Origin: an uncultured virus (IMG/VR IMGVR_UViG_3300046003_003079)
Taxonomy: Duplodnaviria > Heunggongvirae > Uroviricota > Caudoviricetes > Crassvirales
DNA: 64,000 bases
Virus record (IMG/VR): IMGVR_UViG_3300046003_003079
Reading direction: 5' to 3' (one strand)
A program made the translations under genes and the position numbers. Under the pieces are notes generated by a model. It was not told the origin of the DNA. It worked only from the letters and a program-made list of their open reading frames with translations, and did not search any database. Of this stretch, positions 16,607 to 55,667 are shown piece by piece. How positions within the stretch are numbered: position 1 is the stretch's first letter; each line of letters opens with the position of its first letter.

Positions 16607-16809
16607 ATGCTAAATACTTTTTACAAAACATGCATAAATTGTAAATAATATTTGTACATGAAAACTGAAACATGTATAAAAAGCAAATTATTTTATACTT
16701 TTCTGCGAGATTATCGCAAAATCTCGAAGCATTTATACAAATTATTTTATGTATATAAGTCGCAAGTATCAAAAAATAACTATATTTGCCAAAACTAAAT
16801 TTAATTAAA

Positions 16810-24675: not shown

Positions 24676-25105
24676 ATGAAGAAATTATCAGAAAAGGAAT
24701 TGAGTGAACTTACTCACTTAACTAAGATGCATTCAGAACTTAGAAACAGAGTATCTGAATTAGCACTAGCTAACTTTCGAGCAGTATCACATCTAGAAAG
24801 TATTGACCACCAATTAAATGAGAAGCGATCAGCACTAGCCAAGAAATATGGAGAAGGAGCTTCCATTAATATGGAAACAGGCGAAGTCAATGTTAATTCG
24901 TAAGATATCAATAGGCACTGATCCTCTTCACTCGATGAACTTTCAAGTGGGAGGATCAGTTCTTTCTAATTCCCATGAGGTATCTGAGATTAGAAAGACA
25001 GATAACGGATTTGATGTTTGGGTGAAAAACAAGGACCAAGAGATCATTAAGTGGAAGTCAATAATCAATATGCCAGTAATGGTTGAACATTATCTAGAAT
25101 TCTAA
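24676..25105 (+). CDS. Two small conserved-looking proteins (24676-24903; 24890-25105)
   Basis: KKYGEGASINMETGE and IRKISIG...MPVMVEHYLEF; start of the packaging operon. Confidence 0.65.
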
Positions 25106-25683
25106 TGAGATCCCCAAACTGTTTTATAGCCAAACCAAAGGATGGAGATAGATACAGTAATAAAAAAGATGTTGAAGGAGTAGAATTAATCACCTCAGCA
25201 TCCAAAGAAGACCATCTATCTACACAACGAATAGCTGTGGTATTAAATACTCCAGTTAATTATTCTGGGCCAGTGTCAATTGGCGACGAAATAATCGTGC
25301 ATCATAATACATTCAGACTTTATAACGACATGAAAGGAAAGGAGCGTAGTTCTTGGTCTTTTATGTTTGGAGATAATTATCTAATCGATCCACTGGAAGC
25401 ATACGCATACAGATCAGCTGGAGGAGATTGGAATGCAATCGCGCCATTCTGTTTCGTTGAGCCAATTCAAAACGATAATTCAGCATCTACAGTGCATACG
25501 GCATCTGAGGAGGCATACCTTTTTGGTATCATGGTTTATCCAAATTCAGATCAATCGGACATAAAGTCAGGAACTAAGATTGGATTTATGCCAGACTCTG
25601 AATATGAATTCAATATTGAAGGAAGGAAGTTATATCGAATGAAAACAAATATGATATGTCTGAAAAGCGAACAGAAATACTAG
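25105..25683 (+). CDS. Putative GroES-fold (co-chaperonin-like) protein
   Basis: Two GroES-like halves (AVVLNTP...GDEIIVHH; GIMVY...GTKIGF...EFNIEGRKLYRM). Confidence 0.45.
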   Translation: MRSPNCFIAKPKDGDRYSNKKDVEGVELITSASKEDHLSTQRIAVVLNTPVNYSGPVSIGDEIIVHHNTFRLYNDMKGKERSSWSFMFGDNYLIDPLEAYAYRSAGGDWNAIAPFCFVEPIQNDNSASTVHTASEEAYLFGIMVYPNSDQSDIKSGTKIGFMPDSEYEFNIEGRKLYRMKTNMICLKSEQKY

Positions 25684-28145: not shown

Positions 28146-30562
28146 AGCCAGAAATCATACTAACTCCTCAGTCATTCCCAAGTAGCGACATATCAGAGAG
28201 TCAAAAAGATACACCTGAGTTCGGATTACGAATCGGACAAGCTATTCAGCATGAATGGTTTAATAAGGACGGAGGTAGCTGTAGATACTACAGTCAGAGA
28301 GCTGAGTTTCACAGATTAAGACTTTACGCTAGAGGAAATCAACCAATAGGCAAATATAAGAAAGAGATGTCCGTTGATGGAGACTTGTCTTATATGAACC
28401 TAAACTGGGATGTCGTACCGATCATCCCTAAGTTTGTTGATATTGTTGTAAACGGCATGTCTGAAAGAGGTTACAAAATCAAGGCAACAGCTCAAGATTC
28501 AACCTCAGCAGAAAAGAAAAACCTCTTCCAAGATATGGTTGAGGCAGATATGGTTGCTAAGGAATTCTTACTTCAAACTCAACAGCAATTCGGCATAAAT
28601 GCATTTAATGTAGATCCAAAAGAATTGCCTCAAAGCGATGATGAGATGTCGCTATATATGGAGCTTAAATATAAGCCGTCCATTGAAATTGCAGAAGAAA
28701 TCGCTCTTGACACCGTACTTGAATTAAATGACTTCAAACTTATACAGTCTCAGATCGACAAAGATCAAGTAGAGATTGGAGTATCTTTCGTAAGTCATGA
28801 CTTCCAGAAAGGAAATGGAGTTGTTGTGACGTATGAAGATCCAGCTAAAATGGTATGGAGTTATACAGAGAAGCCAGACTTTTCTGATTGCTTCTATTTT
28901 GGTAAGGTTGATACAGTCCATTATACAGAACTATTAAAAATCAATCCAGACTTGACTTCAGAGCGATTAGCGGAGTTAAGAGTATATGGGACATCATGGC
29001 TTAGTGCATATCCAGAAATAAGTAAGTATCAAGATGATATCTTCTCGAAAGATACCGTTACATTACTTCATTTCAATTATCTTATGGACAAGCGATTTGT
29101 CTACAAGAATAAGAAAACTAAGATTGGAGGAAATAAAATAATCAAGAAGGACTCAAGTTTCTCACCAGAGGAAAACGAAAACTTTGAAGTTATTGATATA
29201 TTGAAGCCAGTTTGGTATACTGGGATCATGGTTGCAGGTACAAATGAAATCCTTAAGTGGGAGATGTCTACCAATATGGTGCGACCTAAATCCCCATCTA
29301 ATCGACCTCTTCCAAACTTTATCGGATTTGCACCAAGAATGTACAAAGGAAATATCGACTCTTTAGTTAAGAGAATGATTCCTTTTGCCGATAGTATCCA
29401 ATTGGATCACTTGAAGCTACAACAAATTAAAGCTAGAATTGTTCCTGACGGTGTATTTATTGATGCTGACGGTATTAATGAAGTCGATTTAGGAAGCGGA
29501 GCTGCATACAATCCAGAGGACGCATTAAAGTTATATTTTCAGACTGGATCGGTAGTTGGTAGATCTTACACTGAAGAAGGTGGATTTAATAACGGACGCG
29601 TACCAATTCAAGAATTAAATAGTAGCGGAGGACAAAGTAAGATACAAGGTCTTATCGCCTCATACGACTTTAACTTGAACATGATTCGCGATGTGACTGG
29701 TCTTAATGAAGCGCGTGATGGGTCAATGCCAAATGAGGATTCATTGGTTGGACTTCAGAAGCTTGCCGCATTAAACAGTAATACCGCTACCAAGCATGTA
29801 CTTGACGGTAGACTAATGACAGTTCGAAGATTGGCATTATGTCTTTCATTAAGGATTGCTGACATACTTGAATACGCGAGCTTTAAAGAACAGTTTGCTA
29901 TGCAAATAGGCAAATACAACATCGCAATCCTTGAAGACATTAAGAATTTATATCTACATGATTTTGGTATATCTATCGACCTTGAGCCAGATCAAGAACA
30001 AAAAGATGCCCTAGAGCGAGATATTCAGATTTCACTTCAAAGAGAGCAGATATTCCTTGAGGATGCAATTGAAATTAGAGGAATCAAGAACATTAAGCTT
30101 GCAAACGAGGTATTAAAACTTAAGCGACGACTTAGACAGGAAGACTTAAGAGCACGTGAGGACCAACAAGCAGCTCAACAAGCAGAAATTAATGCACAAT
30201 CTCAACAAGCAGCTACATCAGCCAAAAAGGAGCAAATCCAAATGGAAGCTGAAGCAAAAATGCAAGTAAAACAAAATGAAGTTGCATTGGATATTCAGCG
30301 AATGGGTGCTGAGGTTGAGTACAAGCGTCAATTAATGAAGGAAGAGTTCGATTATAATATGCAACTGAAAGGATTAGAGGTTGAAGGCATAAACAAAAAG
30401 GAAAAAGAGAAGGAAGATAGAAAGGATAAGCGAGTGGACTTAGAAGCTACACGTCAGTCTGATTTAATTGAACAGAGACAAAACAATCTTCCAGCAAAGA
30501 GCTTTGAAAGCACAAATGACAATTTTGATGCATTCGACTTCTCAGCATTTGGACCTAAGTAA
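28142..30562 (+). CDS. Portal protein
   Basis: 806 aa directly after terL; VPIIPKFVDIVVNG and IRDVTGLNEARDG motifs; long C-terminal coiled coil. Confidence 0.85.
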   Translation: MKPEIILTPQSFPSSDISESQKDTPEFGLRIGQAIQHEWFNKDGGSCRYYSQRAEFHRLRLYARGNQPIGKYKKEMSVDGDLSYMNLNWDVVPIIPKFVDIVVNGMSERGYKIKATAQDSTSAEKKNLFQDMVEADMVAKEFLLQTQQQFGINAFNVDPKELPQSDDEMSLYMELKYKPSIEIAEEIALDTVLELNDFKLIQSQIDKDQVEIGVSFVSHDFQKGNGVVVTYEDPAKMVWSYTEKPDFSDCFYFGKVDTVHYTELLKINPDLTSERLAELRVYGTSWLSAYPEISKYQDDIFSKDTVTLLHFNYLMDKRFVYKNKKTKIGGNKIIKKDSSFSPEENENFEVIDILKPVWYTGIMVAGTNEILKWEMSTNMVRPKSPSNRPLPNFIGFAPRMYKGNIDSLVKRMIPFADSIQLDHLKLQQIKARIVPDGVFIDADGINEVDLGSGAAYNPEDALKLYFQTGSVVGRSYTEEGGFNNGRVPIQELNSSGGQSKIQGLIASYDFNLNMIRDVTGLNEARDGSMPNEDSLVGLQKLAALNSNTATKHVLDGRLMTVRRLALCLSLRIADILEYASFKEQFAMQIGKYNIAILEDIKNLYLHDFGISIDLEPDQEQKDALERDIQISLQREQIFLEDAIEIRGIKNIKLANEVLKLKRRLRQEDLRAREDQQAAQQAEINAQSQQAATSAKKEQIQMEAEAKMQVKQNEVALDIQRMGAEVEYKRQLMKEEFDYNMQLKGLEVEGINKKEKEKEDRKDKRVDLEATRQSDLIEQRQNNLPAKSFESTNDNFDAFDFSAFGPK

Positions 30563-31739: not shown

Positions 31740-33107
31740 ATGGCAGGTACAATCGGTGGGTCATTCAATTTGACTCCAAGTTCAACAAAGTCAGTATTGC
31801 AAAGCAACTACTTGACAAATTTTGACTTTTTAAGTCAATACTTACCAGACACTTACGAGCAAGAATTTGCACGTTATGGAGATCGCTCTATTCCGTCTTT
31901 CTTACGTCAAATGTCTGCTGAAATCCCTTCTACATCTGATTTGATCAAATGGACAGAAGAAGGTCGTTTACATACAAAATACACTTCAGTTACATCTGCT
32001 GCTGCTATCAATTCTGATACTGCTGTATTTACTGTTGCTGATGCTGGAATCACTGCATGTAACTTCCGCGTAGGTCAAACTGTATTCTTGTCTTCTGCTA
32101 CTGTAGCAAATAAGGCTATTATCACAGCTGTATCTGGACTTACATTTACAGTTGCTTTCTATGAGGCTGCTGGTCAAGCGTTTGCTTTAGGAGCTACGGT
32201 AACTGCATTCGTTTACGGTTCTGAGTTCAAGAAAGGTACAAATGGTATGGACGGGTCTTTAGAGGCTGAAGTTGATATCTTCGAGGTATCTCCAGTTATC
32301 ATGAAAGACAAGTATGAAATCGCTGCTTCAGACATGGCTCAAATTTCTTGGGTTGAAGTTGAAACAGACGAAGGCATGTCTTACTTGTGGTACTTGAAGT
32401 CTAAGTCAGAAACTCGTATGCGTTTCGATGACTACTTGGAAACAGGTATGATTGAAGGTACAGAGGCTGCTACTGGATCTGGAGCGTTAGCTGCTGGATT
32501 TAAAGGTACTCAAGGTTTATTCGATTCAATCGAAGACCGTGGTAACACTTGGTCTGGTGGGGTTCCATCAACATTGGCTGATTTCGATACAATTCTTACT
32601 CGTCTTGACAAGCAAGGATCTATCCAAGAAAACACATTGTTCTTAGATCGTACATTCTCTTTGAATATCGATGACATGTTAGCTGCTCAAAACGCTTATG
32701 GCGCTGGTGGTACGTCTTACGGATTGTTCGACAATGACAAAGACATGGCTCTTAACTTAGGATTCACAGGATTCCGTCGAGGATCTTATGATTTCTATAA
32801 GACTGACTGGAAATACTTAAATGATGCAACTCGTCGAGGTGGTATCGTTGGTGGAGCAGTTCATGGAGTAATGGTTCCAGCTGGAACAATGAACGTATAC
32901 GATCAAGTATTAGGACAACGTGCTGCACGTCCGTTCTTACACGTTCGTTACCGTCAGTCTGAGACTGAATCAAGAAAGTACAAAACATGGATTACAGGAT
33001 CTGCTGGTGGCGCAAGCAACAGCGACTTGGATGCAATGCAAGTACAATTCTTGTCTGAGAGATGTTTAGTTTCTTTAGGAGCTAATAACTTCTTCTTATT
33101 CAAATAA
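31740..33107 (+). CDS. Major capsid protein
   Basis: Position after scaffold; strongly biased high-expression codon usage; IKWTEEGRLH and SERCL..LGANNF motifs; strong terminator follows. Confidence 0.88.
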   Translation: MAGTIGGSFNLTPSSTKSVLQSNYLTNFDFLSQYLPDTYEQEFARYGDRSIPSFLRQMSAEIPSTSDLIKWTEEGRLHTKYTSVTSAAAINSDTAVFTVADAGITACNFRVGQTVFLSSATVANKAIITAVSGLTFTVAFYEAAGQAFALGATVTAFVYGSEFKKGTNGMDGSLEAEVDIFEVSPVIMKDKYEIAASDMAQISWVEVETDEGMSYLWYLKSKSETRMRFDDYLETGMIEGTEAATGSGALAAGFKGTQGLFDSIEDRGNTWSGGVPSTLADFDTILTRLDKQGSIQENTLFLDRTFSLNIDDMLAAQNAYGAGGTSYGLFDNDKDMALNLGFTGFRRGSYDFYKTDWKYLNDATRRGGIVGGAVHGVMVPAGTMNVYDQVLGQRAARPFLHVRYRQSETESRKYKTWITGSAGGASNSDLDAMQVQFLSERCLVSLGANNFFLFK

Positions 33108-36243: not shown

Positions 36244-39200
36244 ATGTCAGAAGTTAAAAATACATTCGTAGCTGGAGCAATGAATAAAGATCTTGATGAC
36301 CGATTGGTCCCTCAGGGTTATTATCGCGATGCTCAAAATATAAACGTTGATACTTCGGAAGGAGGTAGTATTGGTGCTGCTCAAAATTCTTTAGGAAATA
36401 CTATCACTACAGACATAGCTACAATATCAGGAAGATCAGCGACTGGAGCCAGAACAATTGGATCGGTTACTTATGAAGCTGGAGGGCTTATTTATTGGTG
36501 CGTAGCTGGAGACTTTTTTGACGGAATATATGAATACAATGAAGAAACTCAAACATCAGTCAGAGTTCTTCAGTCAAACAAAGCTAATGCAAATACTCCA
36601 AGCAAACTAAACTTCAACAAAAACTACCCAATAACGGGTATAAATTTCGTGCTAGGGCCAGACAATAATTCATTCCTTTACATAACGGATGACTATAATC
36701 CTCCTAGAAGAATAAATATCAAGCGTGCAAAGAGCTATAATATAGATGACGACATGATCGACATCGATATTGACGTGGCATTAAACCCGCCTTTATATGC
36801 ACCTTACATAAAGTTAGTATCAGACCCAACCACTGAGTCTGATTCAATGGAGAGAAAGTTTTTATACTTCTCATACAGATGGAAGTATGAAGATAATCAG
36901 TATAGTTCAATAGCGCCATTTTCTGCAGTAGCATTTGATCCAAGCAATTATTTTTTCGACTATGGAGTTGGAAATAACAAGTCGATGCTTAATAAATACA
37001 ATTCAGTTGAGATCGAATTCGAAACTGGGAATCAACTTGTAAAGGAAATTCAGCTAATAGTTAGAGACTCGTCTGGTATCAATGTAGGTATAATTGAAAC
37101 ATACTCCAAAGATTCTATCGGCATTTCTGACAATACATCATACAAGGTTGTTTTTAATAACAACAAAATCTACGCATCACTTCCTACAGATCAAGTAACT
37201 AGATTGTTTGACAATGTACCATTGCTAGCAAAAGCTCAGGACATAGTAGGGAATAGACTTACTTATGGAAACTATACGCAGTTCAGAAACATAACAAACT
37301 CCAACGGAGATGAAATAAAGATTGACTTTACTTTAAACCTAGTAAGTGAATCAGTAACTGTAAGTGAACCGAAACAAACTTGGAAATCTGGTAGAGACTA
37401 TGAGGCTGGATTGGTGTATCTTGATGAGAAAGGCAGAATGACAACCGTTCTTACATCGATAAATAATACACTATCAATTCCACTTTCAAATACGAATTCT
37501 GCCAACACTATAAAATTAAAAATAAATAGTGCACCTCCAAGCTGGGCAACACACTACAGAATATTCATAAAGCAGTCAAAAAGAGGATATTATAACGTAT
37601 TTCCAGTTCTGTACTACGCATACGGAACATATAGATATTTCTTGATAAATCAATCAGATGTAGATAAATTCAAAACAGGAGACTATATCACATTTAAGAA
37701 TGATGGATCAGGCCCAGCAACTACATTTAAGAAGTACAAGATATTAGCAGCTGAAAATAGAGTATCTGATTTTATCGGAGGTAATGGCATTACAGAGATT
37801 TCAGGATTTTACATTAAGATAAAAGTAAATAGTCAGACTGAATTTCCAGCTGGAGCGCAAGCTGTATACCAGCATAACGAAGCCAATATGGATCCATCTG
37901 TAGGAATTCAATTGATAACTGATGGAACAAAATTAGCCGAGCAACCCATACACTACGGCACTGGAGATCCTAATGCCATGACATTATTCAGTAATATATA
38001 CTACGGAAACAATGATTATAGAGTTTATATAGAAATACAATCACAATCTACATTCAGATATACACTTGACAGAACTTTATCTGGATCATGGGTAGAGGGT
38101 AATGCTATAGTAGCTGGGCCTATAACTATTCAATTTTTGGATGCGATATTCTTTATTCAATTTGACATATCATCTACATTAACCATAGGTGACAGATGGG
38201 TAGTTAACTTAAGAACAAATCCATCGCTTACTCAATACACAAATTATTATGGAGGATTAGGAACTACAGGACTCATAAATCAAGGTATAGCTAGGGCTGG
38301 ATCAATAGTAACTTCAGAATGGGTAGATTCATCCACTGGAGATAAGCCTATACAAACAGGAGCAACAATTAGAATTACTTGTATAGATGATGCTGGAGGT
38401 CAACCATATACAAATACGCAATCCTTTTCTTCTGATGCTACTTATGTAAATATCGAAGAATGGTTTAACGAGTCTGGAGCTTGGCAAGAATTTGTTTCAT
38501 ATAATGCACAGGGAACAGCTGTGTACTCTCAACCAGTAAACTTTAGAAGAGGCATATACTTTAATGATGATTCTGGAGGGTTTTTAAGAAGAACAGTAAA
38601 GCAAAATAGCGGATTCAATAATGACCTAACAACTACATTATCATCTCCAGTCCATATGATTATAATGGGATACGGAGCCGTGTCTAATAATGGTGGATAT
38701 GTACATAGAGTAGAGTACAAGCTGGAGATTTATCAAACAGACGAGCAAATTGCTTTCGAAACCATACCATCTGAGTCTAGTGATGAAATATTTCACGAGC
38801 TTCACGAGACGTATCCAATCAAAAATGGCAATCACTTAGTAATGTGGGATTATGACGACTATCAATTTGCCGCTGGAAACAAGACAAGGCTAACTCAGCT
38901 TGACAAGAGAAGACCCCATTATTACAATGTTGGTGATGAAATATCTGTGGTTTCGGATAATACTTTATTAATGCCATCAGGTAATTATACAATCTTAGCT
39001 ATTGAAGATAGATATTCAGTTATACTAGATTTTACATTCCCAACTTCTGGACCAGTTACTGGAGGAAAAATAAAGTATCAGATATCAGACGAGCAAGATC
39101 AAACATCATCCTTCACTCCAGCTATTATTGAAATAAATAAGCCATATTCTGATAATTCAGATTTCAATGCTTGGACATTTGGAAATGGACTTGAATCTGA

Positions 39201-40134
39201 CAGAATATATGATGACTTTAATCAATCAACACTTGATTTTAGCGTTAGAGCATCATCAACTATCGATAACTACAAACAAGTAAGAAGCGATGCAAGCCTT
39301 TGTCATAGTGAGATATACAATGAAAATTCTCAATACAACAGACTTAATGAGTTCAATTTAAGTAATGCTAATTTCAAATACTTGGATAGAGAGTTTGGGT
39401 CTATACAAAAACTTTTCGCTAGAGATACCGATCTAATTGTTTTACAAGAAAACAAGATCAGTAAGGTTCTTTATGGTAAGAATATACTATCAGATTCGAT
39501 TGGAGGCGGACAAGTATCTTCAGTAAAAGAAGTATTTGGAACTCAGATAGCATTTAGCGGGGAATGGGGTATATCAAGGAATCCAGAATCTTTCTCTACA
39601 TGGGGAACTGATTCATTCTTTACAGATGCAAGAAGAGGAGTCGTACTGCAATTATCTGGTGATAGTGTATCTGAAATATCTTCTTTTGGAATGAGCGACT
39701 ATTTTAGAGACATAATGAAGGACAATCCTTTAACTCAAAAGATAGGAGCTTATGATCCGCATAATCATAAATACATACTAGGATTCAACGATCAAAGAGG
39801 TATTCCTTGTAACTTATCAATAAGCAGAAATTTACTGAAGGTGCCTAGTAATTCATTGGGGTATAATTTATTCTCAATAAATTCTGATTCGCCTTGGACA
39901 ATTACATTGCAAGATGAAGGATTTGGTACTAACTGGGTTGATGATTTTCCATCTTCTGGATTTGGAAGTCAGGTGATTAATGGGTCCGTATCCACAAATA
40001 CTACATTCTCAAATAGAAGAGTTACTTTTGTAATTGCTTATTGTGATGGAATGACGGAAACATTCATTCTTGAGCAATCAAAGGGTAGAAAAGGTAAGAT
40101 AATTTTAGCTGTATTTAACAAACAAGATAGATAA
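36244..40134 (+). CDS. Tail nozzle/'stabilization' protein, N-terminal major part
   Basis: Starts F..G.MNKDLDDRLVPQGYYRDAQN; later FGSIQKLFARDTDLIVLQENK and GISRNPESF, a beta-propeller nozzle-type pattern. Confidence 0.75.
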   Translation: MSEVKNTFVAGAMNKDLDDRLVPQGYYRDAQNINVDTSEGGSIGAAQNSLGNTITTDIATISGRSATGARTIGSVTYEAGGLIYWCVAGDFFDGIYEYNEETQTSVRVLQSNKANANTPSKLNFNKNYPITGINFVLGPDNNSFLYITDDYNPPRRINIKRAKSYNIDDDMIDIDIDVALNPPLYAPYIKLVSDPTTESDSMERKFLYFSYRWKYEDNQYSSIAPFSAVAFDPSNYFFDYGVGNNKSMLNKYNSVEIEFETGNQLVKEIQLIVRDSSGINVGIIETYSKDSIGISDNTSYKVVFNNNKIYASLPTDQVTRLFDNVPLLAKAQDIVGNRLTYGNYTQFRNITNSNGDEIKIDFTLNLVSESVTVSEPKQTWKSGRDYEAGLVYLDEKGRMTTVLTSINNTLSIPLSNTNSANTIKLKINSAPPSWATHYRIFIKQSKRGYYNVFPVLYYAYGTYRYFLINQSDVDKFKTGDYITFKNDGSGPATTFKKYKILAAENRVSDFIGGNGITEISGFYIKIKVNSQTEFPAGAQAVYQHNEANMDPSVGIQLITDGTKLAEQPIHYGTGDPNAMTLFSNIYYGNNDYRVYIEIQSQSTFRYTLDRTLSGSWVEGNAIVAGPITIQFLDAIFFIQFDISSTLTIGDRWVVNLRTNPSLTQYTNYYGGLGTTGLINQGIARAGSIVTSEWVDSSTGDKPIQTGATIRITCIDDAGGQPYTNTQSFSSDATYVNIEEWFNESGAWQEFVSYNAQGTAVYSQPVNFRRGIYFNDDSGGFLRRTVKQNSGFNNDLTTTLSSPVHMIIMGYGAVSNNGGYVHRVEYKLEIYQTDEQIAFETIPSESSDEIFHELHETYPIKNGNHLVMWDYDDYQFAAGNKTRLTQLDKRRPHYYNVGDEISVVSDNTLLMPSGNYTILAIEDRYSVILDFTFPTSGPVTGGKIKYQISDEQDQTSSFTPAIIEINKPYSDNSDFNAWTFGNGLESDRIYDDFNQSTLDFSVRASSTIDNYKQVRSDASLCHSEIYNENSQYNRLNEFNLSNANFKYLDREFGSIQKLFARDTDLIVLQENKISKVLYGKNILSDSIGGGQVSSVKEVFGTQIAFSGEWGISRNPESFSTWGTDSFFTDARRGVVLQLSGDSVSEISSFGMSDYFRDIMKDNPLTQKIGAYDPHNHKYILGFNDQRGIPCNLSISRNLLKVPSNSLGYNLFSINSDSPWTITLQDEGFGTNWVDDFPSSGFGSQVINGSVSTNTTFSNRRVTFVIAYCDGMTETFILEQSKGRKGKIILAVFNKQDR

Positions 40135-43001
40135 TGAAATTAAATCAATCATTCACAGTTGACGGAGGAACACAATATTCTATAGATGATATAGATACAA
40201 GTGATTTCGGTGTAGCTTTATTCGATATGAAATCAGGCATAGGCGGTGTGGATTACATGCCAGCTGATGGAGACGAAGTGCTTATGATAACAGGATATGC
40301 TGGACTATCTCCAAAAGGTAATTTATCTTTTGAGCCATCAATGAATGACAAGGCGTATTATCTAGTCTCTAACATTGAATACACATCTGCAGACAAGGAT
40401 ACAATAATATCACTAGCTACAGAGGTGCCATTATCATATGCAGTGGTAGATTTTGTTGGCAGATACCAAGGATCGTTCATCTTTAATAATCCATATAATC
40501 ATGAATATTTATATTTGATATGGGATTACAACGATAATTTAGATGAAGGATCAATATCATACGCTGGAAACGCTACAAACAGAGTTGTATCAGCTGATTT
40601 AACTACAGATATCGGAAGTGCAGGTATTGACTATGTAATTCCAAATGTTCCAGTAAGGATTCAGATAAAATGGAACGGAAACATCGTAACAGATACTAAA
40701 TACGTTGGTTTAAACAGCAATGCTAATTACACAAATCTAATAGCAGCTGGAATTGATCCAGATGATATAGGACTGGTATATCCATATGACGGATTAGTTA
40801 ATAATGGAACTGGCTCATCTATATTTAGAAAACACATATCGCTTCAAGATGCTGATGTAATTATATCTGCACCATTAAGCAGCTCTGTTTTCTTTATAGA
40901 ACAGAGAGATACCAATATGAGAAGAGTCTATACCGACAATACTTCTGGCACAAGATCAAATGTATGCTCTCAAATACCAAATGACATGGTGTTTCATGAC
41001 GGGTCAACTACTCTTCCTATAAACGGGGACAGAATTTACACAGACGGAACAGGATCTGCTGTTTTTAATGGCGATAATGCTTACCACTTAATAAGCGAAA
41101 CATCTTTAGGCGCAGCTCCCGTGAGTGGAGGCACTTGGTATCTAATATCAAAGGATGGATATGTATTACAACATGGCAGTTGCGATTGCGATCAGTATGC
41201 ATCACCTCTTATTTTTCAAGAAGATTTATTTTTAACAAAAAACACTGCGGTTGATATTGAAATCCAATCGACAGGCACTCCAACTGAATTCACAGTCATA
41301 ACTGATTGCGATGAATACAACCTAACTGGAGGTACAAGCGGATCAATATTCACAATTACCACGTGCGATGGAGTTGCAAAGAATGTGACTATAAATAGAA
41401 ACTTGAATGCCAATTACCAGTCAACATCTACTCCAGTATTAATTGGAGGAAATGGCACTTTTTCATTAACTGGCCCATCTACATATAGATCACTTCCATT
41501 AGGACTTGCTATTTCCAATGGTAGAATACAAGGTACCCCTCAAGATACATGTAGTTATTCATTAACACTTACGGCTACGAATTGTTTTGGAACTGGAGAT
41601 CCTAAAACAATTGCAATATCAGTTGAGACAGGAATTCAACTAACTCCATTTTTAATTGATACAGAGAACTTTGGAGATACAGGAGATGACGCATGCGCGT
41701 TAAGCCCTATTTACACTGTTCTGTATCATAACGGTATTGGTAGAGTTCCAGATACTGGCGATCATGTATTCAAGGATGATAAAGGAGCTGAACCATTAAT
41801 GGGAGGTGATAGATGGTATAATATCGATCCATCTTCATATAGCATAAAAGTAAATCATGTAGGAAAAGTCTGCTCTAAGAATGAATGTCCTTCTAGCACA
41901 ACCACTACGACTACTACAACATCAACAACCACTACAACTACATTACCAACAGGAGACTGGTTTAATGCTGAGATGTGTACGAATACAGACATAACTGCTG
42001 TTTTGTTCGATGTAACTGCTGGAACAATAACAGTTGGTGATATTGTAAAAACAACAGATGGTAACTGCTGGGAGATATTAAGTACAACTACTGGATCATA
42101 TCCTTACAAGTCTATAGAAAATCCAGTGGGGACATATACCGATTGTGCTGATTGCGTCGGAGCAACTACTACCACAACTACCACAACTACCACAACAGCA
42201 GCTCCAATTACATCGTTTACGATACTTAACACTCCATATCCTTCATCATATGAAGCATGTGCAGGAGGAACGCCAGCAACAACTGTTTATCATAATGGGG
42301 CAGGTGCAGAGCCAGCAATTGGAGATTTTGTATTTACTGACGCTGGAGGAACAATTACTTTTGACGGAGGAGCATCTTGGTATAAAACATCTGGAGGGTT
42401 ATCAATTCAAATATCAAGACTTACTGGTCAGGTATTGAATTCGATTGGTTGCTCAACAACGACAACGACAACGACAACGACAATACCAACGTTCTACTAT
42501 TCAGCACTTGAATGTGGGTCAGCTGGTCCTGCAGTTAAGTTGAGTCAACTATCATTTGATGAATTAGCAGCTGGAGTAGTTGTGAAAGCTGCAAATGGAA
42601 CTTGCTATACAATTCAATCCACAACAACTGGGCCAGCTATAAGCAATATTCTATTTACCTATGAGAACTGTGTTGATTGTCAAGGAGTAACTACTACCAC
42701 AACTACGACTACGACTACGACCAGCACGACAACAACAAGCACGACAACAACAACTACTACCACGGCAGTTCCGTTGATCAAAGTATTAGTTAGATTTGGA
42801 ACAGATACCACAGTATGTTCTGGAACAATATTGGAACAGTGGATTGACGGAGCATTAGGAGTAAGTGGTAATAATATCTATAAAAATGCTGACGGATCAA
42901 TTACTTCTGATGCTGGGTATTATAAGTTGCTTAATTCATCTATTGCGTATGAATGGAATGGAACCGATTGGACCGAAGTAGACAATGTAACATGCAGTTA
43001 A
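40134..43001 (+). CDS. Tail fibre/spike-like protein with Cys-containing repeated modules and four poly-Thr linkers
   Basis: Repeated YHNG...P..GD.VF.D..G modules, CxxC modules, Ig-like segment; Thr tracts of about 9-25 residues at ~41898, 42164, 42456 and 42690. Confidence 0.7.
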   Translation: MKLNQSFTVDGGTQYSIDDIDTSDFGVALFDMKSGIGGVDYMPADGDEVLMITGYAGLSPKGNLSFEPSMNDKAYYLVSNIEYTSADKDTIISLATEVPLSYAVVDFVGRYQGSFIFNNPYNHEYLYLIWDYNDNLDEGSISYAGNATNRVVSADLTTDIGSAGIDYVIPNVPVRIQIKWNGNIVTDTKYVGLNSNANYTNLIAAGIDPDDIGLVYPYDGLVNNGTGSSIFRKHISLQDADVIISAPLSSSVFFIEQRDTNMRRVYTDNTSGTRSNVCSQIPNDMVFHDGSTTLPINGDRIYTDGTGSAVFNGDNAYHLISETSLGAAPVSGGTWYLISKDGYVLQHGSCDCDQYASPLIFQEDLFLTKNTAVDIEIQSTGTPTEFTVITDCDEYNLTGGTSGSIFTITTCDGVAKNVTINRNLNANYQSTSTPVLIGGNGTFSLTGPSTYRSLPLGLAISNGRIQGTPQDTCSYSLTLTATNCFGTGDPKTIAISVETGIQLTPFLIDTENFGDTGDDACALSPIYTVLYHNGIGRVPDTGDHVFKDDKGAEPLMGGDRWYNIDPSSYSIKVNHVGKVCSKNECPSSTTTTTTTTSTTTTTTLPTGDWFNAEMCTNTDITAVLFDVTAGTITVGDIVKTTDGNCWEILSTTTGSYPYKSIENPVGTYTDCADCVGATTTTTTTTTTTAAPITSFTILNTPYPSSYEACAGGTPATTVYHNGAGAEPAIGDFVFTDAGGTITFDGGASWYKTSGGLSIQISRLTGQVLNSIGCSTTTTTTTTTIPTFYYSALECGSAGPAVKLSQLSFDELAAGVVVKAANGTCYTIQSTTTGPAISNILFTYENCVDCQGVTTTTTTTTTTTSTTTTSTTTTTTTTAVPLIKVLVRFGTDTTVCSGTILEQWIDGALGVSGNNIYKNADGSITSDAGYYKLLNSSIAYEWNGTDWTEVDNVTCS

Positions 43002-43909
43002 AATTTATAAACGCTCAACCTGCTACCGATTATTACGCGTGGCAGGTTGAGGTTGCAATTACTCAATTCATCAGGCTTGGATATAATCCAGAAGATATTC
43101 ATGTGATTGGAGGATACACAGATTCAGTTCCTGATAGCTGGGTTAAGTTGCAGAAAAAGTTTGATAATGTTAAAATCTTAACATATAAGCATGATCTTGT
43201 TAATTTAGAATATCAACCAGCAATCCAATCGGCACTGCTTAAAATGCATTGGGATGCTCATCCATACTTAAGGGATTGCGCGATATTTTTCCATGACGCA
43301 GATTTTGTATTGACCAAGCATTTTAATTTTGATCCATTCCTAGATGACGACACTTGGCATTTTTCTGATACGATATCATACATCGGTGCCGACTACATAA
43401 AAAGCAAGAGTCCTTTAGTTCTTGATATAATGTGCCATACAGTAGGGATCAACAAGTCTACCGTCGAATCAAACCAGCAAAACTCTGGTGGTGCACAGAA
43501 ATTAATGAAGAATGTAAATAGTGCTTACTGGGAGGATGTATTTCATAATTCCATAAATCTATACGACGTATTAAAAAAAGTGTCTCACATCAAACAAGAA
43601 GGGGATGAATACGGTATACAGGTGTGGACTGCTAGTATGTGGGCTGAACTATGGACCGCATGGAAGTGCGGGTACAAAATAAACGTACCTAAAGAATTTG
43701 ATTTTGCATGGGCGACATGCAATTCAAAGAAATGGGATTCATTGGCATTCTTCCATAACGCTGGAGTTCCCAATTCTAGTTCTGGAATGTTCTTTAAGGC
43801 TCAATACATAGACAAGTATCCATTCAGTGAAGTGCTTGATTTAGACAAGAATAGATGCTCTAGTAGGTACTTTGATCTAATCAAATCAATAGATAGTTGT
43901 TTAATTTAG
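42992..43909 (+). CDS. Putative GT-A glycosyltransferase (resembles peptidyl Ser/Hyp O-glycosyltransferases)
   Basis: YYAWQ near the N-terminus, DxD motif FFHDADF, W..SMWA and FFHNAG; start MQLKF at 42992 overlaps the Thr-rich gene. Confidence 0.65.
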   Translation: MQLKFINAQPATDYYAWQVEVAITQFIRLGYNPEDIHVIGGYTDSVPDSWVKLQKKFDNVKILTYKHDLVNLEYQPAIQSALLKMHWDAHPYLRDCAIFFHDADFVLTKHFNFDPFLDDDTWHFSDTISYIGADYIKSKSPLVLDIMCHTVGINKSTVESNQQNSGGAQKLMKNVNSAYWEDVFHNSINLYDVLKKVSHIKQEGDEYGIQVWTASMWAELWTAWKCGYKINVPKEFDFAWATCNSKKWDSLAFFHNAGVPNSSSGMFFKAQYIDKYPFSEVLDLDKNRCSSRYFDLIKSIDSCLI

Positions 43910-43921
43910 TATCTTTGCATT

Positions 43922-44647
43922 ATGTCTGAAGTAACAGTTTCATATTCACCTCAAAGTTCTGGATGGACTTCATTCTGGTCCTATAAGCCAGACTGGATGA
44001 TCGGTATGAATAATTCTTTCTATACTTGGAAAGAAGGTAGTCTGTATAAGCATGATACTAATTCGGCTAGAAATAGATTCTATGGTTCTGATAATGAGTC
44101 ATCTATAACTACAATACTAAATCAAGATCCAACTACAAGCAAGATGTTTAAAACATTATATCTTGATAGTAATGTATCTTGGGATGCACAAGTGAATACA
44201 GATTTAAATGCTGGGGAGATTGTTTCTTCTTCTTTCAACGAGAAGGAAGGAATGTGGTACGGCTACATTAGAAGAAATGATGGAGACCTTGATCACAGAG
44301 CAATATCAACGCAAGGGATTGGAGAAGTAGATTCATTTGCATCAAACATATTAACATTTAGTTTTAGACTAAATACATCAGTAAGTCAGGGGGATTCCTT
44401 ATACAAGGTAGTGGGCGGAGCATTAACTTTAATTGGTGTAGTTGCATCGCATAACACAACAACCATAACACTCGTGTCGACGATATCCGCCCCTTCCTCT
44501 GGCGACTTAATTGTATATGTAAAAGATAGTGTTGCTGAGTCATATGGAACTCGCGGAGACTTTTTAACGGTTACACTTACCAATGCTTCAGCCAATAATG
44601 TAGAAATATTTGAAGTTGGAGCTAGCGTTTTTAAATCTTTTCCTTGA
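43922..44647 (+). CDS. Tail protein resembling the C-terminal part of nozzle/stabilization proteins
   Basis: VSYS....GWTSFWSYKP...MNNSFYTWKEG.LYKH, NQDP...KMFKTL and EKEGMWYG motifs. Confidence 0.6.
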   Translation: MSEVTVSYSPQSSGWTSFWSYKPDWMIGMNNSFYTWKEGSLYKHDTNSARNRFYGSDNESSITTILNQDPTTSKMFKTLYLDSNVSWDAQVNTDLNAGEIVSSSFNEKEGMWYGYIRRNDGDLDHRAISTQGIGEVDSFASNILTFSFRLNTSVSQGDSLYKVVGGALTLIGVVASHNTTTITLVSTISAPSSGDLIVYVKDSVAESYGTRGDFLTVTLTNASANNVEIFEVGASVFKSFP

Positions 44648-46742: not shown

Positions 46743-49700
46743 ATGCCAGTTGATTATAAAGAATTTGCGAAGACAATAAAGGCTAAATATCCACAGTACA
46801 AAGATGCTGACGACTTGACTCTAGCTAAGAAGATGGTCGAAAAATTTCCAGAATACAAGGATAAGGTAACATTTGAGCCAGTAAAAAAAAAAGAAAAGTC
46901 GGAATCGGATTCTCAATCTGGGGCAAGTACTTCTTCTTCGGTTACGCCAAGCAAACAAATGCCTTCGCCTTCGGGTTCATCTGCTCAAGGATATGACCCA
47001 AACAAGAACCTATTAAAGGCAGATCAAATAGCTCCAAAGCAGGAGTCAGTTTCGCGGACACAGGTATTTACTGGATATCCAACAAAAGAAAAGAATGAAT
47101 ACCGAGTTCAAGATGGTATTTGGCAAAGAAGACAGCCGAACGAATCTGGATGGCAGAATGTATTAAATGAAGGATCAGTAAATGCCCTAAACAAGCAATT
47201 CAACCAAAAAGTTGCTTACAGTTCAGCTAAAGAAAAGTATATTGGGGTAACTTCAAGTAAGAAAGAAGTTATGGATAGCAAGCTTACCGCTATAAACTCA
47301 AAACTTATTGATAAGGCAGAGGATGAAGTTGTTCCTAAAATGAAGTCTTTATTTCCAGACTTTGATTTTGCTACAAGCGGAACACTTACTGATGAAATGA
47401 AGGTAATAGCACCGAATGGTAAGACGCACACTGTTTCACTGGATAATTTCACATACGATTCAGATAAGAATGAAGCTGTATTATTGCGTGAATTCTTAAG
47501 AGCAAATTCAAACGATGAGTTAAATGCAGCTCAAAAAGAATTGAATGAAGCTCAAAAAGAAGCGGCTGTATTCGATATTCCATTATTCCAACCAAGAATA
47601 ACGTTGGGTGAAGGTGATGAAAGAATTATCACAAACCCAGAAGATATAAAGCAAGCTCCAAAAGCTGAAGGTAATATAATGTCTGCAAATGTAAGGTTAG
47701 ATGCAGCTACGAAAGCCTATGCGAAAGAAACCGTACAGGCATTTGAAGATGTAATGGACCGACAAGTACAGGCTGGAAAAACATCTGGCAAACTAGATGA
47801 TGAGGAAGCAAGAGCAGCCTATGCAGTCCTAAATCATGATTGGAAAACTGTTAAGGCTTACAATGACTTTTCAGCAGACATGAAGTCATCTGCCGATGAA
47901 CTTACAAAGCAATTTACTGATTTTTCAACTTGGGTAGATGGAATAAATGCCAGAGTGAAGAATGGTGAAATTTCTAAAGAGCAGTATGAAAGTGAGTATC
48001 TTCCACAGATGCAATCTGGACAAGAAGCCTTGAGAGCTAAGGCGGTTGAGATCGATGCTGACATAAAGACATCAAACAATATGTACACATCAATCGAAAG
48101 GTCTTCTGCTGAAAACTTGGTGATACAAGAATCTAGAGGATCAATTGGTGGCGGTATTGCATACAATTTCACGAAAGGACTTACAGATATTGCTAGGCTG
48201 GCTTCTATGGGAGCTGTATCAAAAGATGCTCAAGAGGATATTGTTAGATCAATCGTAGGTCAAGGAACTACTGCTGAATATATGTCTTCAGATAAGAGAA
48301 ACGACTTAACTAAAGTATTATTTAGTTTGTCTCAAACTCTTGGGCAAGCAGCTACTGGAGGTGTTCTTGGTGGGGGCGCTTCAGCTGCGAGTAAGGCAGC
48401 ATCATTCGCCCCATTCTACGCTGGTAGTTACTATGAAATGAGAGATCAGTTTGATAGCCCAGAGTTTGCTGATGTATCAGATGCTCAGAAAATATTGTTT
48501 TCATCTCTTTATGGAACCGCATCAGCTGTACTTGAGAAATATGGTTTAACGAAATCCATAGCAAAGACACCTATGGGTCAAGGACTGACTAATAGAATAT
48601 TAAATTCAGCTATTAAAGGACTTCCAAAAGATGCTACTGAAACACAAGTGAGAGATGCTATTGAGAATAGCGTTATAAATAAGCTAAAGGAAGCTGGAGT
48701 CAGAACGGTGAGTGCTGCCGTAATAGAAGGATCAACTGAAGCAGCTCAATCAGCTACTCAAATAACATTAAAGGAAACTTTTGATTTACTAAATGATAAT
48801 AATTATTTTGATAACGGTACTGGTTGGGACATTGCTAAGCAAATCGCAACTGAAGCATACTTAGGTGCGATTGGCGGGGGAATGATGAGCGTGGCTTCTA
48901 GCGGAACTAGAATCATGGCTGATGGAATAAATAAATCGCTGAATAAAGGTCAGATGGAAATGCTTGATGCTATCTCTAAGTTAGATGGTATGGATGCTGC
49001 ATTTGATGCTCATTTAAAGAGTAAGGTTATTAGCGGTGAAATAACTCCAGCAGAGGCTTCAGAAATGAATAAATCATTCCGAGAAGTTAAGGCAAACATG
49101 GATAAAATCCCAACTGACATCTCAATCGAAAAGAAATCAGAAGCGTTCGATTTAATGATTGAAAGATCTAAGATTGAAAAAGAGATTGAAGGCAAGGAGG
49201 ATAACTTAGTTGTTGGTCAAAAGGAAAGAATTAAAGAAATCAATCTTTCATTACAAGAATTAAGTACTGCTAAAGCGGAACCAATAGAAGCTAACGACCA
49301 AGTTGACGTGCAAATTAACGACCAAGTTGTGGTTGATAAGCCAGTCATTGCAAAAAATGCAACTGTTGAGGTAGAAAGATTAAAAACATTAGCTCCAGAA
49401 GTTGAGGATGGCGCTACATTAAATCTAGACGGATCTAAATATGAAGGAGTTGGATTAGTGGTACCAGTTGATAGTATCAATACAACTACTGAAGAAATTA
49501 CTCCAGAAATGATTGCTGACTTTGTTGAGTCACGTCAAGAAATGATTGGAGATGCTGGAGTAGTAAAAGCTGGAGTATATAAATTCCCAAATAGTAATCA
49601 GGTATCTATCGATTTGTCAGTAGTCGTTCCAGAAACATCAAGAGAACAAGCAATTGAATTCGGGAAGTTGGCTGATCAAGAGTCCTTATTTGACTTAGGT

Positions 49701-52700
49701 ACATTTGAAAATGTGAAAACTGGGGGGACTGGATTAAATCCAATGAAATTTACTCCAGAGCAACATAGAGAAATTGCGACTGCATTAAAAGAAGGAAGAG
49801 TTCCAAATGTATTTGGTTCACAATCACAAGCTGTAGAGCAAAACGAACTCACACTTGATAATTATTCAGACGTTGAGAAATCAATTGTAACGAACGATAA
49901 GGATGGTAGAGCTACGAATATAGCAAAAGCAGCTAGAGCTGTGCTTAAATCTCTTCCTAGTGCAAAAATATACCTACATAATACCACTGAAGAATATCGA
50001 GATGCAATCGCGAAGGCAGAAGGATCAGATCGTGAGCAGGTGGATATCGATGAGAATGGGGACCAGCAGTCAAACGGTACATACTTAAATGGAGGAATTC
50101 ATATAGACATGTCTAGAGCTGATGCGTCAACAGTATTCCACGAAGCATTTCATCATGCAGTTGTTACTACAGAAATGAAGAAAGAACTGATGCGTGACTG
50201 GGTGGATGGACTGAAGAAAATTGTATCAGATAAAGATCTTATTGCAAAGCTTGAAGGTTTTGAGTCCAGATACGATGGGGATGTGGATTCCGATAAGGCT
50301 GAAGAATTTCTTGCCGAACTAAATGCAATACTAGCTGAAGCAAAGACTGAATTAACAACTACTAAGCTGCAACAATTTAAGCAGTTAGTAAATTCTATTG
50401 CTAAAAAGTTAGGGCTTCCTGCTGTGTTTAAGGATTCAGATACTGCTCAAGAGGTTTTGAATTTTATGAACGACATGGCTAAAAACATGCGTCAAGGGAA
50501 GGAGATAAAAACTACTTCTGTAGTTGGAGATATTGCTTCTCGTAAAAAACGTATGTCTGAGCCAGTTGCTGGGAATAAATTATTCAGCGAGCCTCTTAAG
50601 GATGCATCTGTAATTGCAGAAAGATATTCAGAGAAATCTGGTATTGAGTATGTCGATCCAGCGAAAATCTCAAAACTTGATGAAAGCAATTCAAAAGCAA
50701 TTGCTGCTGAGTACGACAAAATGAAAAATGATCCTACTGATCCAGAAGTGAAAGCTGCGTATGACGCAATGATTAGTGAGACAATCGATCAATATGAAGA
50801 GATCATTAAGGATGGATATGTAATCGAAGTGAATAACAACGAGCCATACTCTAGTTCTGAAGAGATGATAAAAGATCTTCGTGATAATAAGCGAATGAAA
50901 ATATTCTCTACTGAGTCTGGATTTGGAGATGATCCAATTACTGATGAGCAGAGAGCAGAAAACCCATTACTTCAAAGAACTAAGTATTCAGATTCGAATG
51001 GAGTTCCATTACTAGCGAATGATATATTTAGATTTGTGCATGACTTCTTTGGTCACGCTAAATTTGGAAATGGATTTGGTCCAGTTGGGGAGGAAAATGC
51101 TTGGAGAATTCATTCAGTTATGTATTCTGAATTAGCCAGAAGAGCTGTTACTTCTGAAACGAGAGGTCAAAATAGCTGGGTTAATTTTAGTGGGGTGAAT
51201 GACGCTGCATTTAAACTGCGTGATAAAGCCAGAGAGTTACGTAAGCAAGGTAAAATTAATGAAGCAAATGAAATGGTTGGTCAAGTTTATGATCAAATGC
51301 AATTTGCTGAACAGAAGGTTGGATTAATGCCAGAGTGGGTATCAGAAACTGGGCCTCGTAAAAAACAAAAGTCAGGTAAGAAGCCACTTCAAAAAGCAAT
51401 CGATAAGTCATTCGCGAAGTCTACTAAAAAAGTAGTTATAAATGAGCGTGTTGCACTTAGAGATCAAATAAAATCAGAAGTGAAAGCTGCGCGTACAGCT
51501 GGCCTTGATAAGGTAAGAAAATTCAGAGCGATTGCTGGTGCAGTAAATGCAATGAAGCGTAATGGATCGATCACTTCGAAGCAAGCAATCACTATTGTAA
51601 ACAAGCTTGCAAAAGTTAATTTAGATAGTCCAGTAGCTACGCAGAAATTCATAGATTACGCATCGAAAGTATTCGATAATGCTGATTACAAACAGCAATT
51701 GTCTGATGCATTTAAGATTCAACGACAAATTAAAAACAAGTTAAAAAATGGTCAAGCATCAACTATTGCAGCAGCTAAGGCTTTTGCGTCAATCGATCCA
51801 CTTCTTGTGGATGACTTTAGTGAATACATGGAGTACGCGAACAGAGTGTATTCAGCTGTACGCTCATCTCGTACCACTAATTCAGCGGTAGAATTAAAGT
51901 CTGCTATGGATATCCAAGCGATTAGTGAATATACTGACGCTATGATTGAAGTACAGAATGAAAAAAGAAAGGAAGAAATTCTTGCAGTATACCAAGAACT
52001 AGTAGATGCTGGAGTTATATCTGAAGACATGTCTTTGAAAGATATTCAATCAGTAATAAATTCACTTAAGGACCCGTCCAATAAAGACATCCAAGAGGAA
52101 AGTATTCGTGCATTCATCAATGGAAGAATTGAATTATTAAATAATGATATCCAGTTCATCCTTAAGAATAGCATTGATCCATCTGGAGATAATTTAGAGA
52201 TCACTCCAAGACAGCGAGAACTTATTTCGAAACTGATTAAAATAGATGCGTCAAAACTTTCTATAAAAGAAGCGATTAGACTTGTTGAATTCATGGATAA
52301 CTTCACAGCTAATGGAGTAGTTGATGGGATTGAGGAGGTTAGTTCTATTTACGAAGGTAAAGAAGGCGCTGCTAGAATTAAGAAAGAAGGAATTGTAGCT
52401 AGGTCTTTGAAGACACTTAATGGAAAATTGAGTGGGTCCAAAACAAAAGCTTACGGAGGTGCTATTTGGGCGCAACAGATGATGACATTTGTTACTCTGA
52501 ATGACATGATGTTCAAGGGTGTTCGTAGAGCTGGGAAGGTTCTTACTGAGATGGGATTTTATGCCTTTTCCAATGGTGCCAATAAGGCGAATAATACTTG
52601 GAATAAGATTGTAAATGAATATTCTGACACATTCACTAAGCTAAAACCTAATGGAGAAAAATTTAACACAGCTAAAAATATCTATGAGCGCGGGATGTAT

Positions 52701-55424: not shown

Positions 55425-55667
55425 TTACTCCGTAAAATTAGCTTTTACTGCCCACATTGCAGCCTCTTCATAACTTGTCTGAGCAATTGAGATAACTCTA
55501 TGTTTTTCGGAAGAAATATAAGCGCCTTCTACTTCGTGAATCCTCATTTTTTCAACTAAATCAATCAATTCAGCTGATTTGTCTTTGATTTGACTCACCA
55601 AATCGCTTTTTGCAGGATTAAACTCTGCCTTTACTCGTTTTTGTCCTAATGTTTGAGACATATTCAT
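55425..55667 (-). CDS. Acb2/Tad1-like helical-hairpin protein (putative nucleotide-signal sponge)
   Basis: IKDKSAELIDL...R.ISIAQTSYEEAAMWAVKA motif. Confidence 0.6.
   Translation of the reverse strand: MNMSQTLGQKRVKAEFNPAKSDLVSQIKDKSAELIDLVEKMRIHEVEGAYISSEKHRVISIAQTSYEEAAMWAVKANFTE

Follow-up and report, generated by a model that had tools for sequence, protein, structure and literature searches.

Glycosylation of phage particles has been measured in only a few mycobacteriophages; O-glycosylation of the virion is described for Che8, Corndog and Myrna, and it is reported to alter antibody recognition (PMC12619734, PMC12363180). Here we analysed 64,000 nucleotides (nt) of an uncultured virus of the Crassvirales (IMG/VR record IMGVR_UViG_3300046003_003079; this whole stretch is called the window, and all positions refer to it), in which two overlapping genes on the + strand encode a protein of 955 amino acids (aa) with four threonine (Thr) tracts and a glycosyltransferase-like enzyme of 305 aa. 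We consider it likely that these genes form a two-gene unit in the tail module, through which the phage, in the cytoplasm, O-glycosylates its own virion proteins at their Thr tracts, a reading proposed by the first-pass annotation of the window and supported computationally by our analysis of sequences and predicted structures. The nearest described system is the glycosylation of mycobacteriophage virions, a finding that reportedly comes from Freeman et al. 2023 in Cell Host Microbe; phage-encoded virion glycosylation as such is already known, and it is the enzyme family, the acceptor type and the hosts that differ at our locus and are new. The earlier suggestion of a possibly undescribed system thus stands for the enzyme family, which is absent from searchable papers, but not for virion glycosylation encoded by phages, known in mycobacteriophages. 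A full-text literature search (subscription journals and supplements being outside its coverage) returned no paper on the family or on the pairing of poly-Thr proteins with transferases in phages.

The two genes carry the following features, where A2 denotes an alignment of orthologues of the 955-aa protein and Ser stands for serine.

40134..43001, + strand: putative multi-domain appendage protein, 955 aa, with a beta-rich body (aa 1-586), five small cysteine (Cys)-bounded modules and four poly-Thr linkers
41892..41942, + strand: Thr tract 1, aa 587-603, 17 Ser/Thr; position conserved in A2
42165..42197, + strand: Thr tract 2, aa 678-688, 11 Thr; position conserved in A2; tandem repeat
42453..42482, + strand: Thr tract 3, aa 774-783, 10 Ser/Thr; position conserved in A2; tandem repeat
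42690..42764, + strand: Thr tract 4, aa 853-877, 25 Ser/Thr; position conserved in A2
42992..43909, + strand: predicted soluble GT-A glycosyltransferase, 305 aa, phrog_4417; ATG at 42992, 10-nt overlap with the end of the preceding gene
43295..43303, + strand: codons of D102-A-D104 (DxD); D104 invariant and D102 at least 90% conserved in 63 homologues
43754..43765, + strand: codons of H255-N-A-G258; H255 and G258 invariant in 63 homologues

As the first-pass annotation had stated, the second gene overlaps the first and its product carries DxD, YxxWQ and WxxxMW motifs (D102-A-D104, Y14xxW17Q18 and W212xxxM216W217); because of the overlap, the two genes are probably translationally coupled. The 63 aligned members, which reach down to 28% identity, share without exception W17, Y74, D104, Y130, Y135, G167, Q169, M216, W217, F238, H255, G258, K269 and P277, while conservation is 90% or higher at Y14, Q18, D102 and W212. 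Being invariant or nearly so, the three motifs constitute a family signature. At E <= 0.001 the family has 784 representatives, counted as clusters at 50% identity, and for 273 of these the E value is 1e-30 or lower; the window enzyme matches phrog_4417, a PHROG of unknown function, from end to end (E 2.4e-58).

The glycosyltransferase assignment depended on a GT-A fold, and a confident one with a DxD motif was found: the AlphaFold2 (AF2) model of the enzyme (predicted local distance difference test, pLDDT, 97.5; predicted template-modelling score, pTM, 0.93) was placed by a VIA-align structural search against representatives within the GT-A fold, nearest to the retaining GT8-like group at Z about 14. 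The matches were as follows (rmsd, root-mean-square deviation).

1zcu, glycogenin: Z 14.3, rmsd 3.6, 221 residues aligned
1g9r, LgtC: Z 14.1, rmsd 3.6, 231 residues aligned
6mw8, Skp1 alpha-galactosyltransferase: Z 13.9
6u4b, WbbM: Z 13.8
6fsn, UGGT catalytic domain: Z 13.6
7ui6, LARGE1: Z 13.4
5gvv, GlyE: Z 12.8
2p6w, PBCV-1 capsid glycosyltransferase (A64R): Z 11.8
9dyt, mimivirus R699: Z 10.9

Foldseek agreed on GT-A (top matches at E about 1e-6, probability 1.00), and the enzyme is modelled as a single Rossmann-like GT-A domain with a conserved DxD. By analogy with its nearest folds it would use a retaining mechanism and depend on a metal, for which the invariant H255 is a candidate third ligand, presumably as in GT8 enzymes. 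No membrane segment was found in the enzyme, and since its longest hydrophobic run does not exceed five residues, it should be soluble and presumably cytoplasmic. Searched against solved structures, the enzyme's profile (A1) returned TAL-effector repeat proteins (E down to 2e-5), which we rejected as an artefact, namely the summed tiny matches of one 31-residue stretch to each repeat.

By fold the enzyme is thus a GT-A protein of GT8-like type, and it is a member of no curated family. None of the 63 members matched Glyco_transf_8 at E up to 1. The first-pass annotation had likened the motifs to those of eukaryotic peptidyl-Ser galactosyl- and hydroxyproline (Hyp) arabinosyl-transferases (GT96/GT95); we take Pfam HPAT (PF23452, plant hydroxyproline O-arabinosyltransferase) to correspond to CAZy GT95, and peptidyl-serine alpha-galactosyltransferase to GT96. 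This resemblance was borne out weakly and in part. The window enzyme itself had no PF23452 match at E up to 1, and its nearest folds are GT8-like, but 2 of the 63 members matched HPAT at this threshold. The better of them, relative P0150 (38% identical to the window enzyme), reached 21.9 bits (E 1.3e-4), under the curated cut-off of 23.9 bits, in a colinear alignment of residues 9-242 with profile positions 9-230 of 307. Likewise, an ESM-Atlas feature search put 22 of the 30 named neighbours, at scores of 0.96-0.97, in a set of clusters where 10-58% of the members carry HPAT. Carried to a near-identical record (G001) and 14 control genomes, the HPAT model found nothing at E up to 10 in G001 and nothing in the controls, and 0 of 85 matches in a homologue search from P0150 carried PF23452. 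On these sequence comparisons, the enzyme is possibly a distant relative of HPAT.

A second recognised glycosyltransferase domain (GT2, GT6, GT7C, GT25, GT29 or GT32-type) followed the family domain in 23 of the 150 representatives scanned, and one representative was fused to radical-SAM plus SPASM and one to a methyltransferase domain. Such fusions would suit a transferase that primes the glycan, with extending or tailoring enzymes acting after it. Relatives P0131, P0124, P0153, P0184 and P0136 include fusions of the enzyme to DUF6171, to a methyltransferase domain or to radical-SAM plus SPASM, and in Enterococcus phage 9183 the copy of the enzyme is annotated as similar to a PqqD-type peptide-modification chaperone. 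Together, these fusions and this annotation hint at a role in peptide-modification loci as well, of the kind that makes ribosomally synthesised and post-translationally modified peptides (RiPP-like).

The presumed substrate is the 955-aa protein, in which 152 residues are Thr and the four tracts, already noted in the first-pass annotation, provide together 63 Ser/Thr positions. Twelve runs of eight ACN codons are present in the window, every one of them within 40134..43001, and none appeared in 100 dinucleotide-preserving shuffles. The tracts had been described as encoded by mostly mixed ACN codons and for this reason as selected at the protein level. All four codons are indeed in use (ACA 22, ACT 16, ACG 11, ACC 8), but tract 2 is a perfect (ACT ACC ACA) x3.2 repeat with a 9-nt unit and tract 3 a perfect (ACA ACG) x4.7 repeat with a 6-nt unit (Tandem Repeats Finder, 100% matches for both). 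Codon mixing is therefore a weaker argument than it had seemed, and the length of these tracts can probably change by slippage. Selection at the protein level is nevertheless suggested, and by stronger evidence than the codons, in A2, where 19-20 orthologues (37-57% identity) have tracts at the same four places and the modules between them diverge.

Consistently with the earlier description of tracts linking Cys-rich modules, the protein has 22 Cys, the modules after aa 500 (of two alternating kinds) begin and end near Cys, and each tract has a Cys 1-4 residues before it and mostly a proline 2-4 residues after it; the Cys pairs may staple the modules, by disulfide or metal. In the AF2 model (mean pLDDT 77.7) folded beta domains lie between the tracts, and the sole long internal stretches of low confidence (pLDDT <50) are 588-604, 678-689, 775-783 and 853-878, so that the protein is modelled as beads on a string with Thr linkers that are predicted to be disordered. 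The protein matches phrog_21885 in three stretches (E 2.2e-25). Whole-protein fold searches with the model gave only generic multi-domain beta-sandwich matches (TM 0.05-0.25) and uncharacterised phage proteins, from which we drew no function, and an ESM-Atlas search with module B (aa 689-773) gave only unnamed virus-only clusters (scores 0.85-0.86).

We then looked at the pairing of the enzyme with Thr-rich genes across viral contigs, in the 80 best IMG/VR enzyme loci (36-64% identity) of 590 confirmed, a poly-Thr open reading frame (ORF) being one with a run of at least eight Ser/Thr that includes at least six Thr. Such an ORF was present in 69 of the 80 loci, and in 68 it lay on the same strand within 700 nt: it ended right at the enzyme start in 61, stood right after the enzyme in 4 and was at most 700 nt away or overlapping in 3, the remaining one being 9 kb away. 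All 85 poly-Thr ORFs were on the strand of the enzyme. After tract masking, the partner proteins fell into 17 sequence clusters, the largest of which, with 48 members, probably owes its cohesion to small modules that these proteins have in common.

The pairing also held within the crAss-like clade, for which we used as control 80 loci around homologues (33-100% identity) of the muzzle C-terminal (muzzle-C) protein encoded after the pair. Seven had both the enzyme and a poly-Thr ORF, 73 had neither (1.16 Mb), and none was discordant; with the 5 negatives whose upstream flank is <4 kb set aside, Fisher's exact test on the 7 versus the remaining 68 gave p = 5e-10, uncorrected for relatedness. On a tree of 22 muzzle-C proteins (the nearest and a spread of the rest), the joint label needs three changes (2-3 in bootstraps). 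Another set, chosen around a helicase, comprised seven loci, none with the enzyme or a poly-Thr ORF, and was too small for a control. In locus L092, the 955-aa protein has an orthologue, 44% identical over aa 1-587, that stops exactly at the Cys-Pro before Thr tract 1, and the enzyme is absent, which indicates that the Thr-linked distal half and the enzyme come and go together. The co-occurrence that the first-pass annotation had put forward as a check was thus found both among viral contigs at large and within the clade.

Isolate phages extend the pairing to other structural proteins. The enzyme is encoded, at <60% identity, in 75 isolate-phage records, of which we examined 10, chosen to span genera; a search by DNA similarity with the two window genes gave no match to isolate phages. 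In Chryseobacterium phage MA9V-3, two ORFs with long Thr/Ser runs stand directly before the enzyme gene. In all nine Firmicutes and Actinobacteria phages examined (Enterococcus phiFL1A and 9183; Lactococcus bIL285, 1706 and CHPC836; Lacticaseibacillus R3.3; Lactobacillus iLp84; Staphylococcus SA2; Arcanobacterium TPWB06), a poly-Thr tag closes the capsid and/or tail-tube proteins, and the enzyme gene, in the head-tail module, comes after the capsid gene or else after the tail-tube gene, from which no more than one short poly-Thr ORF separates it. One tag is often found on two proteins of one phage (loci L174, L175, L176 and L179), as in Lactococcus phage 1706 (L174), where both orf10 and orf13 carry T9-10-HHD. 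The T-run tags of R3.3 and CHPC836 end in ...SHA or ...HA, that of iLp84 is T7-SK, and the tail-tube tag of Enterococcus 9183 is weaker, TTTDPVTTTSTT. That one ending closes two proteins of the same phage suggests a recognised tag which includes the residues following the Thr run.

The window belongs to the genome of a crAss-like phage (G+C content 35-40%), and its late operon runs on the + strand from terminase through portal, capsid-type and structural proteins to the muzzle gene, the two genes of interest and the muzzle-C gene.

25941-28145, + strand: terminase (phrog_6681, E 1e-175)
28142-30562, + strand: portal (P22_portal; phrog_6547)
31740-33107, + strand: capsid-type structural protein, then further structural proteins
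36244..40134, + strand: crass-type muzzle protein, N-terminal and main part, 1296 aa (Pfam PF25731 crAss_MUZ, E 5.4e-21, 74.9 bits, cut-off 27)
43922..44647, + strand: 241-aa protein with the crAss muzzle C-terminal domain (PF25729 crAss_MUZ_C, E 5.7e-15, 56 bits, cut-off 27)

The product of 36244..40134 also matches phrog_14478, a virion structural protein (E 1.7e-196), and that of 43922..44647 matches the C-terminal ends of long muzzle-type PHROGs. This is the arrangement of a crAss-like tail module, with both muzzle Pfams above their cut-off and the portal, terminase and capsid-type PHROGs in the expected order; crAss muzzle matches flank the gene pair on either side, and the 955-aa protein, whose gene occupies the interval between the muzzle and muzzle-C genes, is most likely a tail appendage. 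This interval is a variable slot, with zero to several unrelated genes in different relatives (among them loci L092, L096, L097, L103, L110, L115, L130, L137 and L154), and its differing content fits a hot spot for host range or appendages. We considered that a cassette might have split a once-whole muzzle gene, and rejected this: the muzzle-C domain is separately encoded, with the variable slot before it, in all 11 relatives whose gene maps were compared.

Downstream of 43922..44647 come two smaller ORFs and then an ORF of 2765 aa (46743-55040, + strand), past the tail genes and where crAss-like phages keep giant virion or cargo proteins; it had no Pfam match and a single weak match to a PHROG of unknown function. 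Elsewhere in the window, a GroEL-type chaperonin (16786-18405, + strand; Cpn60_TCP1, E 1.2e-51) is directly followed by a Cpn10/GroES ORF (18389-18646, + strand; E 1.6e-11), and another ORF (25105-25680, + strand) matches a PHROG named co-chaperonin GroES. An ORF of 117 aa (14298-14648, + strand) gave a Pfam match (PF10686, E 1.7e-13) to the YspA/cpYpsA-related SLOG family, whose nucleotide-binding fold is frequently associated with signalling or defence. On the - strand, an 80-aa ORF (55428-55667) is a candidate sponge for cyclic-nucleotide immune signals, by its similarity to the Acb2/Tad1 hairpin domain (PF24729, E 5.1e-13, 49.5 bits, cut-off 27).

In the mechanism that we propose for the two-gene unit, the enzyme would be expressed late, take a nucleotide-sugar from the host and move the sugar to the hydroxyls of the linker Thr before or during assembly. 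Catalysis would depend on a metal and involve D102xD104 and the invariant H255, Q169 and K269, and the linkage would be alpha, by analogy with the retaining GT8-like structural neighbours. Since no second glycosyltransferase was found among the 77 ORFs of the window, the glycan would be one sugar per Thr, or its extension would fall to the host or to genes outside the window. Once incorporated into the virion, the glycosylated linkers may act as extended, hydrophilic and protease-resistant spacers of the tail appendage, which would give the stiff and glycan-shielded product imagined in the first-pass annotation.

Several observations weigh against this reading. The enzyme has no Pfam family at E up to 0.1, and a sequence search of solved structures with it gave only malate synthase at E 0.062, which is noise; in the literature searched, no glycan, mass shift or enzyme activity is reported for any member of the family. 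Incorporation of the 955-aa protein into the virion has gene position as its only basis, the fold searches being generic. By the strict rule 11 of the 80 enzyme loci had no poly-Thr ORF; upstream of the enzyme, two of them show a neighbour that is Thr-rich by a looser rule, a third has a poly-Ser ORF, and the remaining eight seem to form, with the 9-kb case, a single lineage where other genes surround the enzyme. The contigs in both sets are related, so that the counts overstate the number of independent events, and on the muzzle-C tree strongly supported branches alone force only one change; taken with the three changes of the best tree, several joint gains or losses are likely, not proven. 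Finally, the GT-A fold does not fix the acceptor, since DNA, lipids and glycans are also acceptors of GT-A enzymes.

This last point opens the way to another acceptor, such as phage DNA, an envelope glycan of the host (lipopolysaccharide or teichoic acid) or a small molecule, with the adjacency to poly-Thr genes reflecting a shared mobile cassette for tail or host-range functions. The lineage of about 9 in 80 enzyme loci without a Thr-rich neighbour is compatible with such a role, and phage GT-A enzymes are known to hypermodify DNA (bioRxiv 10.1101/2023.12.21.572611). The DNA-modifying GT-A enzymes described there, however, are JGT/TarP-like and stand beside methyltransferase, 5mYOX or thymidylate-synthase genes. 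Modification of DNA had been named in the first-pass annotation as one of the findings that would speak against its reading; none of the genes reported beside these enzymes was found in the window, where no thymidylate-synthase, hydroxymethylase or TET-type gene was present among the 77 ORFs, and the enzyme gene lies in the tail module. For acceptors in general, the 17 partner clusters, together with capsid and tail-tube proteins, have the Thr run as their common feature, the enzyme and the Thr tracts are gained and lost jointly, even by truncation of a single protein, and the enzyme has no recognisable membrane segment. We therefore regard a different acceptor as unlikely.

Still less probable, in our view, is that the Thr tracts are plain, unmodified flexible linkers or tags and that the enzyme is non-catalytic or has an unrelated role, for instance as an assembly factor. 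In favour of this explanation, the perfect short repeats of tracts 2 and 3 may have originated by slippage. Against it, the catalytic-type DxD, His, Gln and Lys are kept in the 63 homologues, a conservation that argues for an active enzyme; 23 of 150 relatives are fused to further glycosyltransferase domains, and among the enzyme-less relatives of the clade not one Thr tract occurs in 1.16 Mb. A third proposal keeps the acceptor and changes the chemistry, the enzyme being a sugar-1-phosphate transferase of the Stealth or GlcNAc-1-phosphotransferase type that phosphoglycosylates the Thr tracts. Four of the 63 members do match Pfam Stealth_CR2 weakly (best E 0.0019), and GlcNAc-1-phosphotransferases and CpsY are among the fold matches (Z 10.0-10.3), but these scores are well under those of the GT8-like group (Z 13-14), the Stealth matches fall below Pfam thresholds and the window enzyme itself matches no Stealth region. 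To this proposal we give the least credence of all.

We thus retain O-glycosylation of the Thr tracts as the best reading, and more tentatively, with rather less confidence than we would need to assert it, we propose a portable system made of a poly-Thr tag plus a dedicated transferase. An unnamed, mostly viral GT-A family, distantly related to HPAT/GT95, would sugar-coat any virion protein with bare Thr runs, whether capsid, tail tube or, in the window, a crAss-like appendage with its linkers; a mucin-like coat strategy would then be common to phages of Bacteroidota, Firmicutes and Actinobacteria, and peptide-modification loci may use the same enzyme. If the family does what its pairing with Thr runs implies, virion glycosylation would be common, in environmental crAss-like phages, dairy lactococcal phages and therapy-candidate enterococcal and staphylococcal phages, with possible effects on phage stability, adsorption, immunogenicity and mass-spectrometric annotation. 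The Thr run would be a simple encoded tag that needs one small soluble enzyme for cytoplasmic O-glycosylation, of interest for glyco-engineering, and phrog_4417, a large family of 'hypothetical proteins', would gain a function.

Among known systems, the giant viruses offer GT-A enzymes with which a virus decorates its own particle (PBCV-1 A64R and mimivirus R699; fold Z 11.8 and 10.9), but these are viruses of eukaryotes with other acceptors, and their fold scores lie below those of the GT8-like group. HPAT and GT96 enzymes O-glycosylate peptides, in repetitive and extended stretches rich in hydroxyls that resemble the putative acceptor in the window; here, however, this acceptor would be Thr, not Hyp or Ser, and the enzyme would be cytoplasmic, without a membrane anchor. 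Closer in structure are the GT8-like glycogenin, LgtC, GlyE and Skp1 alpha-galactosyltransferase (Z 12.8-14.3 over 211-231 aligned residues), which share the DxD and a distal His. Self-glucosylation of glycogenin, modification of Skp1 and the action of GlyE on Ser-rich repeats, in the pneumococcal serine-rich-repeat protein pathway, all concern protein acceptors in the cytoplasm. In contrast, sequence identity to these enzymes is 8-11%, Glyco_transf_8 is not matched, and the window family is mainly viral and unnamed.

The mycobacteriophages differ from our locus in several respects. Their glycans have been measured, and the tracts in the window, as putative acceptors, are internal linkers of a putative appendage. 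In Che8, gp108-110 are by Pfam a GT2 plus methyltransferase, a GT2 and a GT25, none of which the window enzyme matches, and in BLASTP the latter gave E 0.44 against gp109 and 1.0 against gp110, the two that were compared. The glycosylation genes of Che8 are well separated from its structural genes, at the opposite end of the genome, whereas the window enzyme adjoins its presumed substrate, and the capsid and tail-tube proteins of Che8 end in ...KTGS and ...SDGS, not in poly-Thr. Nevertheless, some relatives of the window enzyme carry Methyltransf_24 and, weakly, GT25, as the Che8 genes do. In the mycobacteriophages, phage transferases are proposed to modify, in the cytoplasm, the Ser/Thr-bearing disordered ends of the phage's own virion proteins, and the Firmicutes relatives of the window enzyme are likewise paired with tagged capsid and tail-tube subunits.

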